A stretch of DNA of 64,000 bases from a virus. Its lineage: Duplodnaviria > Heunggongvirae > Uroviricota > Caudoviricetes. The stretch lies in the IMG/VR virus record IMGVR_UViG_2563366911_000001, one strand, 5' to 3'. Under the pieces are notes generated by a model. That model searched no databases and was not told the origin of the DNA. It was given only the letters and a program-made list of their open reading frames with translations. A program made the position numbers and the translations under genes. This document shows positions 31,364 to 51,516 of this stretch, one piece after another; the stretch's first letter is position 1; the number at the start of each line of letters is the position of its first letter.

Positions 31364-31439
31364 AAACCGGCATTGGCGATGGTGGATGGATTTGAACCAT
31401 CGACCCGTTGATTAACAGTCAACCGCTCTAACCGCTGAG
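31364..31439 (-). tRNA. tRNA-Asn (GUU)
   Basis: 76 nt, anticodon loop CTGTTAA, GGTTCAAATCC T-arm, encoded CCA; 2-nt spacer to tRNA-Thr. Confidence 0.85.
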
Positions 31440-31915
31440 CTACACCATCACTTGCCGGGTACGTCTCCGGCGAGGGCTTCCACCTCCGTATGCTTTTCGG
31501 CGCACCGCGCCCTGGCTGCAATTCGGTAACAGGGGATGCACAACCCTGGCTTCCAGCGTGATTAGCGCCTTCAGCATGACGGGATATACCCGTAAATTCG
31601 TGGAACTGTACCCAAAGTGCTGTTAAGCACCGCTGTTACGCTGAAAAGAAAACGCAACAGGAAAGGACGCTGACCAACAGATGGCCCCTTCTCGTTCATC
31701 TGGTTAATCACACCAGCGCCCTTACCTGTTGTGCCTCCCCGTTCCCTAATACACAGACGGGGACACTCTGCGGTCGATTTTTTTGACGGGGGACGACTCA
31801 TACCCCGTGGCATCTGGTTTCTTAGGCCGCTACCATCATCAGATCATCGTTTGCATTTACTTTAATGGTCAGTTTCTAAACCGCCGCAAAGTCGCTAACC
31901 ATGACGAAAACCCTG

Positions 31916-47467: not shown

Positions 47468-47623
47468 TTACCTTTCAGATTCGTAGGCTGTGAAGACAGT
47501 GACCTCCGTCTGGCCGGTTCGGATTCGTACCTCGCAGAGGTCTTTCCTCGTTACCAGTGCCGTCACAATGACGGTTAAACAGATGACGATCAGAGCGATT
47601 AACATCGCTTTTTGCTGCTTCAT
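47468..47623 (-). CDS. hok: Hok/Gef-family type I toxin, 51 aa (not in ORF track)
   Basis: MKQQKAMLIALIVICLTVIVTALVTRKDLCEVRIRTGQTEVTVFTAYESER matches Hok family (LIVCLT...TRKSLCEIR...AYES). Confidence 0.8.
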   Translation of the reverse strand: MKQQKAMLIALIVICLTVIVTALVTRKDLCEVRIRTGQTEVTVFTAYESER

Positions 47624-47681
47624 AGCCTGCTTCTCCTTGACCTTTTGGTCGGTAAGAGGCTAATCTACGTATGCTAAGCAT
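47475..47681 (-). CDS. mok: Mok-like overlapping reading frame spanning hok
   Basis: Out-of-frame ORF starting upstream of hok and ending with it. Confidence 0.5.
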   Translation of the reverse strand: MLSIRRLASYRPKGQGEAGYEAAKSDVNRSDRHLFNRHCDGTGNEERPLRGTNPNRPDGGHCLHSLRI

Positions 47682-47730
47682 AGATATGGCCTCAGATTAA
47701 TGTTAAGCGTCTTGCAGGACGCGTAATGTT
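47640..47730 (+). ncRNA. sok: Candidate Sok-like antisense RNA (approximate bounds)
   Basis: Antisense to the mok start region; TTGACC-n18-TAATCT promoter-like element; hairpin GCGTCttgcaGGACGC. Confidence 0.3.
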
Positions 47731-47804
47731 ATCTGGGGCTTTCTTCTATCTGCTTTTCGGGTAATGCCTGAAGCAGATAGCCTCAAGCACCCGCAACGAT
47801 TGTA

Positions 47805-49940: not shown

Positions 49941-50984
49941 TTAACCTATTGCTACTGGTTTTAACAAACCAGCATCAAGTAGCTTGCGAGTTAACCACTG
50001 CTGGCCTTTACCCGTTAATTGGGGCGTCAGCCGTATCTGGTAGCCATTTTCATCATCCAGCACCACTTCTTTCACCGTGAAATACCCGGCGTTGATGTAC
50101 TGTTGGCGCGGTACGTTTTTGCGCGCACCAAAAGCCATGAGAATGCCGTTCTGGCGCAACCATGAGAAAAGGGCGTTTTGCTTAAGTCCAACGACCTTTG
50201 CAAAGTTCCCGATCAGGATTCCATTGGCCACTGATACCCGGTCGGCAAAATCGACTTTAGGGGCTGCGGCCACCAGCTGTTGTTCCAGCTGCATTTTCTG
50301 TTCTGCCAACTCGGCAGCCAGGCGTAGAGCTTCTGGTAATGTTTGGGGGATCGATGGGGCAGGGGAGTTTGCCTGCTGCAATTCTTCCAGTTTGTCGATC
50401 AGCGAACGGCGGACGGCTTTTGATTCGCGTGCGGCGACTCGCAGGGCTTGTTTGTAGGTCATGGTTATGACAACCATAGGCGTACCGCCACCTGGCGGCA
50501 CGGTTGCACTTTTTGTGTAACCGTCCTCACCTTCTAATTCGTCGAGTATTTTTTCGATGAATTTGTTGTTCCGAACCTCTGGTTCCCCACATAACTTACG
50601 CGCTTCATTGACCATCTTTAACAGTGTCAGGCTGTCGATTGTGTCTCCGGTGTTGGGGATAATATTCACGGCTGGTGCTGGCGTAGCTGACGTAACAGGT
50701 GCTGGTTTTTCAACATTCAAATTATTACCGGTCATTCTATGTGCCTCCTTTCTCATTTCTGCTGCCACTGTTGCGTAACGTAGACGTCCTTGTTCAATCA
50801 AATAATCCCTGATCTCGGCTATCAGTAGCCTGTTGATCACAGCCTTATCTATCCGGGTATAAAAACGCTTGGTTATCATGAAATAGTTGGCAATTGCGCC
50901 GGGGATCTCCCGTGTCGGCATACAGGCAGTATGCAGGGCGATCGCTTCGGCTATTTCATTCCGGGTGACGAGAGGTTTTTTCAT
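49941..50984 (-). CDS. ant1: Antirepressor Ant-like, 347 aa
   Basis: Size; C-terminal antirepressor domain shared with KilA-like; preceded by icd-like ORF and c4-like RNA. Confidence 0.8.
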   Translation of the reverse strand: MKKPLVTRNEIAEAIALHTACMPTREIPGAIANYFMITKRFYTRIDKAVINRLLIAEIRDYLIEQGRLRYATVAAEMRKEAHRMTGNNLNVEKPAPVTSATPAPAVNIIPNTGDTIDSLTLLKMVNEARKLCGEPEVRNNKFIEKILDELEGEDGYTKSATVPPGGGTPMVVITMTYKQALRVAARESKAVRRSLIDKLEELQQANSPAPSIPQTLPEALRLAAELAEQKMQLEQQLVAAAPKVDFADRVSVANGILIGNFAKVVGLKQNALFSWLRQNGILMAFGARKNVPRQQYINAGYFTVKEVVLDDENGYQIRLTPQLTGKGQQWLTRKLLDAGLLKPVAIG

Positions 50985-51202
50985 AAACCCCCCTGAACGT
51001 CGGCAGAGAAGGGGAGGCTCCAGTAACTAAGTGAATTGCGCGAGTTAGTTGAAAAACGGGCAGTAAAAATGCAGGGGCCATCAGGCAATTGAGAGCGTGC
51101 TTCGTCTTCTGTTGCAGCGATAACGAAGTGATAGTGGTGTTTTTTACAGGAATAGAAACGCCAGATGAATTCTTGGCGTGCGCAAGGATTGGCATTAACC
51201 AT
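50981..51202 (-). CDS. icd: Icd-like small protein, 73 aa, overlapping the ant start
   Basis: 73-codon ORF whose stop overlaps the ant ATG. Confidence 0.55.
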   Translation of the reverse strand: MVNANPCARQEFIWRFYSCKKHHYHFVIAATEDEARSQLPDGPCIFTARFSTNSRNSLSYWSLPFSADVQGGL

Positions 51203-51204
51203 AG

Positions 51205-51295
51205 TTACGGCCTCGTAAGTTGATAAACAACCTGCGACCCGCTGCTAAACAGGTGGCAGGACGTGACGGGGTTAGCAGACTGGCACTTACGAAAC
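51205..51295 (-). ncRNA. c4: c4-like antisense regulatory RNA (approximate bounds)
   Basis: Two short stems TTCGTAAGT/ACTTACGAG and CTGCTAAC/GTTTAGCAG; copies of GTTTAGCAG and ACTTACG recur about 130 nt upstream. Confidence 0.45.
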
Positions 51296-51516
51296 CAGCA
51301 GGCCGAAGCCTCCCCATCACGCCCCACCATAATTCGGGCGTAACGTGGTTTACGGACACAAAAATACCGCAATATCGGAAATCTGCGGTTGTCCGCGTAA
51401 GTATTCAGGCTGCTAAACCCGGTCGCAGAATTTGCTACGACGGCGGAACTATAAGCCTGAACGATTAAAAGGTCAATATGATGCGAAAAGATAGCATTCG
51501 CGACTTAAAAATACAA

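Follow-up and report, generated by a model that had tools for sequence, protein, structure and literature searches.

A P1-like phage-plasmid c4 immunity locus with a P7-type and a D6-type pairing element, and the likeness of its leader to Salmonella IsrK

Phages P1 and P7 carry an immunity region, immI, in which production and processing of the antisense RNA c4 were reportedly shown by Citron and Schuster in 1990 and 1992 and by Hartmann et al. in 1995. From the work of Citron and Schuster, of Biere et al. in 1992, of Hartmann et al. and of Riedel et al. in 1993, c4 is said to be cut out with a 5' end made by RNase P and to block icd by pairing with the elements a2 and b2. In both phages the block of icd stops antirepressor synthesis through translational coupling and Rho-dependent polarity. 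Another pair of elements, a1 and b1, has to our knowledge been assigned no phenotype in P1. The CI RNA of satellite phage P4 is likewise processed from the leader of the transcript that it controls and has complementary sites both upstream and downstream, and its reported output is that transcription of the replication operon ends prematurely, not that an antirepressor ribosome-binding site is blocked. The likeness of P4 CI RNA and its seqA and seqC sites to c4 is one of layout alone. For immI in general, the model is set out in PMC8198154 and in PMC12197685.

In Salmonella, a leader RNA called IsrK has been studied in the chromosomal lambdoid prophage Gifsy-1. According to PMC4825925 (which also cites the P4 CI RNA), IsrK is a 77-nt RNA that ends at its own terminator, read-through past that terminator yields the antirepressor mRNA, and supplying IsrK in trans increases translation of the antirepressor more than 100-fold. 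The model published for Gifsy-1 is one without a c4-type antisense RNA.

The DNA analyzed here is a 64,000-nucleotide stretch of the IMG/VR virus record IMGVR_UViG_2563366911_000001 (Caudoviricetes), which we call the window. Its minus strand very probably carries immI, the immunity module of a phage-plasmid of the P1-like (Punavirus) group, in which c4, encoded just upstream of icd, would silence the antirepressor. The c4 system found here is the textbook one and is already known, and the allele is essentially identical to public SJ46 and plasmid sequences; expression, processing and phenotype of the window's c4 are assigned by homology. The result confirms that the window comes from a phage-plasmid of the P1 kind whose immI module is intact; for the window itself it otherwise has little consequence, but it fixes coordinates for an RNA gene and its targets that many genome records leave unannotated. 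Worth a note as by-products are the near-complete reassortment of a and b elements, the two to four differently coded c4 loci of some elements, and the apparent identity of IsrK with the a1b1 leader.

Salmonella phage SJ46 and many P1-like plasmids of E. coli, NZ_CP049847 for example, match the locus at 99.7% identity across leader, c4 and icd and so have the same allele; they show no substantial difference from it, and c4 is unannotated in their records. In BLAST comparisons a 671-bp region is about 94% identical to P1 immI and about 95% identical to P7, and 694 plasmid records match it. Of the 24 kb around it, 86-90% aligns with P1-like phages, at an identity of 97-99%. The window also has three tRNA genes on the minus strand (29224-29296, 31299-31371 and 31377-31449; Rfam tRNA, 64.7-74.5 bits), which is in line with a P1-like genome. 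Just past the repL-like gene lies a hok/sok toxin-antitoxin locus (47468-47792, minus strand; Rfam sok, 114.9 bits) with a Hok protein of 51 aa (Pfam PF01848), and we know of no hok/sok at the equivalent position of P1.

Alignment to annotated P1 (NC_005856), a check that the initial annotation had proposed, maps the elements of the window (Table 1) one-to-one and in the same order onto Oc4, the promoters P2c4 and P1c4, a1, b1, c4, a2, b2, icd and ant1/ant2. The leader in which c4 lies belongs to an icd-ant1/2 operon under C1 control, whose operator and two promoters equal the annotated P1 features. The P1c4-type promoter has 10 of 12 consensus matches in a promoter scan, with a predicted transcript start near 51441, and the stop of icd overlaps the start of ant1 (ATGA). 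Upstream, where P1 has the divergent genes simABC, the window has two other plus-strand ORFs of 172 and 168 aa (51601-52714) that diverge from the c4 promoters. The 172-aa ORF has a borderline match to PTP-like phytase (26.8 bits vs the cutoff of 27), and the 168-aa ORF has no Pfam match.

Table 1. Elements of the c4 locus in the window, with related loci mentioned in the text
Feature	Sequence	Position	Strand	Remarks
C1 repressor operator (Oc4/Op51 equivalent)	AATGCTCTAATAAATTT	51515..51531	-	Same as annotated P1 Oc4
Promoter, P1 P2c4 (P51a) equivalent	TTGTATTTTTAAGTCGCGAATGCTATCTT	51488..51516	-	Identical to annotated P1; C1 operator overlaps
Promoter, P1 P1c4 (P51b) equivalent	TTGACC, 17-nt spacer, TATAGT	51448..51476	-	Identical to annotated P1
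Leader hairpin 1	GUCGUAG-CAAAUU-CUGCGAC	51422..51441	-	Paired in Rfam c4-a1b1 and isrK alignments and in MFE fold
a1	GTTTAGCAG	51418..51410	-	Target UUAGCAG 51410..51416, in loop of leader hairpin 2 (51421..51406)
b1	ACTTACG	51402..51396	-	ACUUACG, unpaired in leader
Leader terminator-like hairpin	CCGCAG...UUGCGG, then UAUUUUU	51360..51388	-	Between b1 and c4; aligned to isrK terminator
c4		51328..51252	-	77-nt antisense RNA, by homology to P1 misc_RNA c4
b'	TTCGTAAGT	51293..51285	-	Loop of c4 hairpin 2; RNA form UUCGUAAGU; D6-type specificity
a'	CTGCTAAC	51278..51271	-	Pairing part CUGCUAA 51272..51278, single-stranded c4 junction; P7-type specificity
a2	GTTTAGCAG	51250..51242	-	Target UUAGCAG 51242..51248, 3 nt downstream of c4 3' end
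b2	ACTTACGAG	51220..51212	-	RNA ACUUACGAG; overlaps icd Shine-Dalgarno GAGG 51214..51211
icd		50981..51202	-	73 aa, cell-division inhibitor; 96% identical to P1 Icd; intact
ant1		49941..50984	-	347 aa, antirepressor; 95% identical to P1 Ant1; Pfam ANT/KilAC domain; intact
ant2 start		50735	-	In frame within ant1; by homology with P1
isrK/c4 module, Gifsy-1 (L127)		1783-2036
isrK/c4 module, Yersinia phage vB_YpM_41 (L125)		2425-2680
isrK/c4 module, ECO95 fragment (L124)		501-760
Contig 2703718869_000013 (L018, L052, L099, L120)				Four c4 loci on one contig; IMG/VR
Contig 651053023_000001 (L015, L076, L103)				Three c4 loci on one contig; IMG/VR
Contig 2713896909_000009 (L066, L092, L121)				Three c4 loci on one contig; IMG/VR; three more multi-locus contigs besides

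The Rfam scan of the whole window, run at gathering thresholds, gave as its matches at this locus the families C4 (RF01695; 51334..51249, minus strand, model full-length, 70.8 bits vs a gathering score of 45) and c4-a1b1 (RF03163; 51454..51402, minus strand, 56.2 bits vs 46.7). Together with the alignment to P1, the C4 score bears out the claim of the initial annotation that a c4-like antisense RNA is encoded on the minus strand just upstream of icd. The c4 architecture, in Rfam structure and MFE fold alike, is that of a long closing stem around two hairpins, with b' as the loop of the second and a' as an unpaired junction. The MFE fold, computed on 51329..51253 and so one base out of register with c4 itself, agrees with the Rfam consensus structure and has an energy of -46.1 kcal/mol (z = -5.9), which none of 200 shuffles equals in stability. 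In the alignment, c4 has the same terminal stem and 3' ACC as its P1 counterpart, and the 77-nt scaffold of P1 c4 equals that of the window except in a', b' and one stem position.

The motifs that the initial annotation had named all lie on the minus strand where it had placed them. Its pairings hold in that b' and b2 are complementary (9 bp with one G.U), as are a' and a2, but the latter duplex is 7 bp long (CUGCUAA/UUAGCAG) and not the 8-9 bp that had been given. The further target-like copies had been put about 130 nt upstream, which fits the distances of 109 nt from b' to b1 and 140 nt from a' to a1. The sequence GTTTAGCAG is found in the 64-kb window solely at a1 and a2, and the pattern TTAGCAG-N(5-30)-ACTTACG occurs there exactly three times, as a1b1, as a2b2 and as its reverse complement within c4, and not once in 100 dinucleotide-preserving shuffles. 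The window has a single c4 locus within its 64 kb.

Its specificity is a mosaic of those of known phages. P1 has UUGACAG as its a element and GUUAGUG as its b element, whereas those of the window are UUAGCAG and ACUUACG. P7 (AF503408) shares with the window the a element (UUAGCAG/CUGCUAA), the scaffold and the operon, but its b element is GAUUGUG/CACAAUC, for which the predicted non-cognate b duplex has -1.7 kcal/mol vs -10 kcal/mol for the cognate one. The c4-icd locus of D6 (MF356679) has in turn the b element (ACUUACG/CGUAAGU) and the a2-b2 spacer of the window and an identical c4 scaffold; unlike the window, it has a P1-type a, a Roi-like antirepressor and other neighbouring genes. With a P7-type a and a D6-type b, both different from those of P1, the window element is predicted to be heteroimmune to P1. 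Predicted cognate duplexes have about -10 kcal/mol for b and -8.5 kcal/mol for a, and non-cognate ones -0.9 to -7. By these energies the c4 of the window should ignore P1 targets and should contact P7-type targets through a only and D6-type targets through b only, so that with P7-type or D6-type elements the window element is predicted to share just one of the two contacts.

We scanned IMG/VR with the invariant c4 scaffold, and at least 120 stretches of DNA match it. The 120 matches listed, together with P1, P7, D6 and the window, make a sample of 124 c4 copies, 120 of which are complete across the six elements. Among the matches listed, a1 equals a2 and is the complement of a', and b1 equals b2 and is the complement of b', in 119 of the 120 complete loci. 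Pair counts were made on an alignment of 36 distinct leader-to-icd sequences. In these 36 sequences c4 makes 16 pairs with a2/b2 and 14 with a1/b1; in both sets 100% of cells are paired and 8 pairs have double-sided changes, against 25-44% of cells paired overall in slid-register controls (33-44% for c4-a2/b2, about 26-39% for c4-a1/b1). For the upstream set, the 7-bp complement of a1 and a' is maintained at 100% with 2 covarying pairs, and that of b1 and b' at 100% with 6. Loss of the complementarities in relatives had been named by the initial annotation as evidence against its reading; what was found is the opposite, both c4-target pairings being fully maintained through compensatory changes. 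With the one-to-one P1 mapping and the Rfam C4 and c4-a1b1 scores, this covariation supports the reading of the segment as an antisense immunity RNA.

Since many of the sequences are closely related by ancestry, few independent events lie behind the covariation: among close relatives at least one for a and at least five for b, to which the three distant loci are added. The distant loci, Yersinia phage vB_YpM_41, the ECO95 fragment and Gifsy-1, have unrelated a and b sequences in an unchanged layout. In the Yersinia phage a is UUGGCGU and b is UCAUCAUG, each present both upstream and downstream of c4; in the ECO95 fragment b2 is CACAAAGA and b1 is CACGAAG, which pairs through a G.U. Since the pairings are kept by compensatory change, the alignments support both target sets, a1/b1 as well as a2/b2, as probable functional pairing partners of c4.

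The same sample reveals a modular code. Among the matches listed there are two types of a, UUAGCAG (P7 and the window) and UUGACAG (P1 and D6), and six types of b, GAUUGU (P7), GUUAGU (P1), ACUUAC (D6 and the window), ACGAAU, GUACAU and ACUUGU. Of the 12 possible a-by-b combinations, 11 are seen among these matches, and that of the window, P7-type a with D6-type b, is the second commonest, with 19 of the 120 complete loci and 20 of the 124 copies, the window's among them. The elements are ordered a1, b1, b', a', a2, b2 along the locus. A swap of one element therefore needs coordinated changes at three separated sites, which implies repeated multi-patch recombination under selection. The lone exception among the 120 complete loci of the matches listed is in the first ~240 nt of IMGVR_UViG_2565956613_000015 (L043), where b1 and b' are of the ACGAAT type and b2 is of the P1 type (GTTAGT), so that the agreement of b1 with b' is intact. 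This contig and that of L074, from the same genome, start at the same base within leader hairpin 1, and L043 may be either a true intermediate left by a single crossover or a chimera made in assembly.

Six P1-like contigs among the matches listed have two to four c4 loci each, 16 loci in all, and among these a given (a,b) combination is never repeated within a contig. That co-located c4 loci always differ in code is suggestive only, since by a rough calculation from the type frequencies such avoidance is expected by chance about 1 time in 10 and is not significant. Tabulated in this way, the a-by-b code could predict which P1-like plasmids, which often carry resistance genes, are heteroimmune.

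The leader that holds a1 and b1 matches another RNA family. The Rfam model isrK (RF01394), which stands for an Hfq-binding RNA, aligns full-length with 51441..51360 of the minus strand and so begins at the predicted start of the P1c4-type transcript; its score of 47.9 bits (E = 2.6e-9), obtained at a relaxed threshold, is just under the gathering score of 50. The aligned parts are hairpin 1, hairpin 2 with a1 in its loop, the single-stranded b1, and the terminator-like hairpin with its UAUUUUU. This last hairpin and its U-run are conserved in about 118 related loci among the matches listed, the short leader has the hairpin in its MFE fold, and canonical terminator equivalents are present in the distant loci. 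A simple terminator scan of 50900-51700 with a loop limit of 8 flagged no terminator; it missed the leader hairpin because the loop is longer than 8.

In the three distant loci isrK scores above the gathering score (70.9 bits in the Yersinia phage, 53.8 bits in the ECO95 fragment and 79.3 bits in Gifsy-1), and in all of them it lies directly upstream of the C4 match and overlaps the c4-a1b1 match. In the Gifsy-1 sequence IsrK occupies 1796-1872, and 25 nt further on comes a C4-family RNA (1898-1981, 69 bits). The b' (CGGUGAU) and a' (ACGCCAA) of this RNA match a1/b1 inside IsrK and also a2/b2 next to STM2616, an antirepressor-like gene, at its Shine-Dalgarno. The architecture is that of the window, namely a promoter, a leader whose a1 is in the loop of a hairpin and whose b1 is unpaired, then a terminator, the C4-family RNA, a2, b2 at a Shine-Dalgarno and an antirepressor gene; unlike the window, Gifsy-1 has other a and b sequences and no icd, so that the antirepressor gene comes directly next. 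The overlap of the matches and the Gifsy-1 layout indicate that isrK and c4-a1b1 describe one leader element in Rfam, and on this evidence isrK appears to be the same element as the a1/b1 leader together with its terminator. STnc1160 ('orf45'), the processed RNA reported downstream of IsrK (PMC4825925), corresponds to c4. With a C4-family RNA and matching sites in place, the published IsrK/STnc1160/anrP system is on this evidence a c4-type immunity module. The passages searched of PMC4825925 and of a 2025 review of phage small RNAs leave the link between IsrK and c4-a1b1 unstated. A literature search that covered few subscription papers, and is thus weak evidence, turned up neither the modular a-by-b diversity nor the correspondence between IsrK and the a1b1 leader. 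With the Salmonella IsrK and P1 a1b1/c4 systems recognized as one module, experiments with IsrK suggest a function for the long-unexplained a1 and b1.

By analogy with P1 and P7, the operon of the window would be transcribed from the C1-controlled promoter and from the second promoter (51516..51448, minus strand) into an RNA with the structured leader and its a1/b1, then c4, a2/b2, icd and ant1/ant2. The 77-nt c4 would be excised from this transcript, its 5' end being made by RNase P as in P1 and P7, and its exposed b' and a' would base-pair with b2 and a2 of a transcript of this kind. As such pairing covers the icd ribosome-binding site, we propose that icd would be left untranslated and that, because ant1 is translationally coupled to icd through the ATGA overlap, the antirepressor would not be made; the C1 repressor would then stay active and lysogeny would be maintained. 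The specificity of this immunity would be set by the sequences of a and b. Transcription of the a1/b1 leader may end at the leader's terminator (51388..51360) and give an RNA of about 80 nt which, once released, would compete with a2/b2 for c4 and so tune repression, as judged from Gifsy-1 IsrK. Read in c4 terms, the trans activation by IsrK is the effect expected of a released a1b1 RNA that titrates c4. We therefore offer, tentatively and as something possible that stops short of probable, a scheme in which an IsrK-like leader RNA titrates c4, the choice between termination and read-through sets how firmly the antirepressor is held, and a modular two-part a/b code reassorts into heteroimmune lineages. 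If this is true, up to four differently coded c4 loci could coexist in one element, and the P7-a/D6-b allele of the window would be one specificity of the two-part code.

The covariation of a1/b1 with a'/b' is perfect, which any pairing role explains, and it is equally compatible with a1/b1 being a second cis target, as in the seqA/CI/seqC arrangement of P4, rather than a released decoy. On that account c4 would act on the nascent leader, with early termination or feedback on its own synthesis or processing as the outcome. The terminator-like hairpin directly after b1 is in keeping with it, as is the whole-precursor MFE fold, in which a1/b1 are paired with a'/b' in cis, and the authors of the Gifsy-1 study raise the analogy themselves (PMC4825925). 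The experiments of the same study speak against it, in that IsrK still had its effect when the c4-equivalent RNA was expressed constitutively, and IsrK provided in trans acted as an activator, not a repressor. We regard a P4-like cis role as conceivable and on balance somewhat doubtful; it and the decoy role are not mutually exclusive.

Other accounts fare far worse against the covariation. The P1 annotation labels a1/b1 merely 'putative' target sites, and they might be a functionless leftover of an ancient duplication of a2/b2. A relic would drift, whereas a1/b1 keep step with every change in a'/b' across 119 of the 120 complete loci among the matches listed and in the three distant loci with their unrelated a and b, and b1 and b' agree even in L043, where b2 differs; the idea of a relic is thus effectively refuted, and we give it almost no credence. 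It is just as hard to believe that the c4 segment codes for a small protein, the reading first given to P1 c4 and that given to 'orf45' in Gifsy-1. An ATG at 51330 does open a frame of 41 codons whose end lies 3 nt short of the icd start, and a tagged orf45 was detected in Gifsy-1 (PMC4825925). But the ATG at 51330 has no Shine-Dalgarno before it and would be split by a P1-like RNase P cleavage, and the covariation is an RNA pairing pattern to which the Rfam structure models fit. The ORF is 14 codons long in P1-type loci, where a TAA falls inside b', and 31, 41 or 45 codons in other b types, and a protein-coding reading of the segment was rejected because the length of the ORF varies from 14 to 45 codons with the type of b.

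In Yersinia phage vB_YpM_41, a ryfA match of 134.6 bits (L125, 1106-1404, minus strand) lies about 1 kb upstream of the isrK/c4 module. Modules of this Yersinia/Gifsy type, with isrK plus c4, match 338 phage records, more than 150 of them of Stx-converting phages, and in these records the module is mostly unannotated or given as 'hypothetical protein'.
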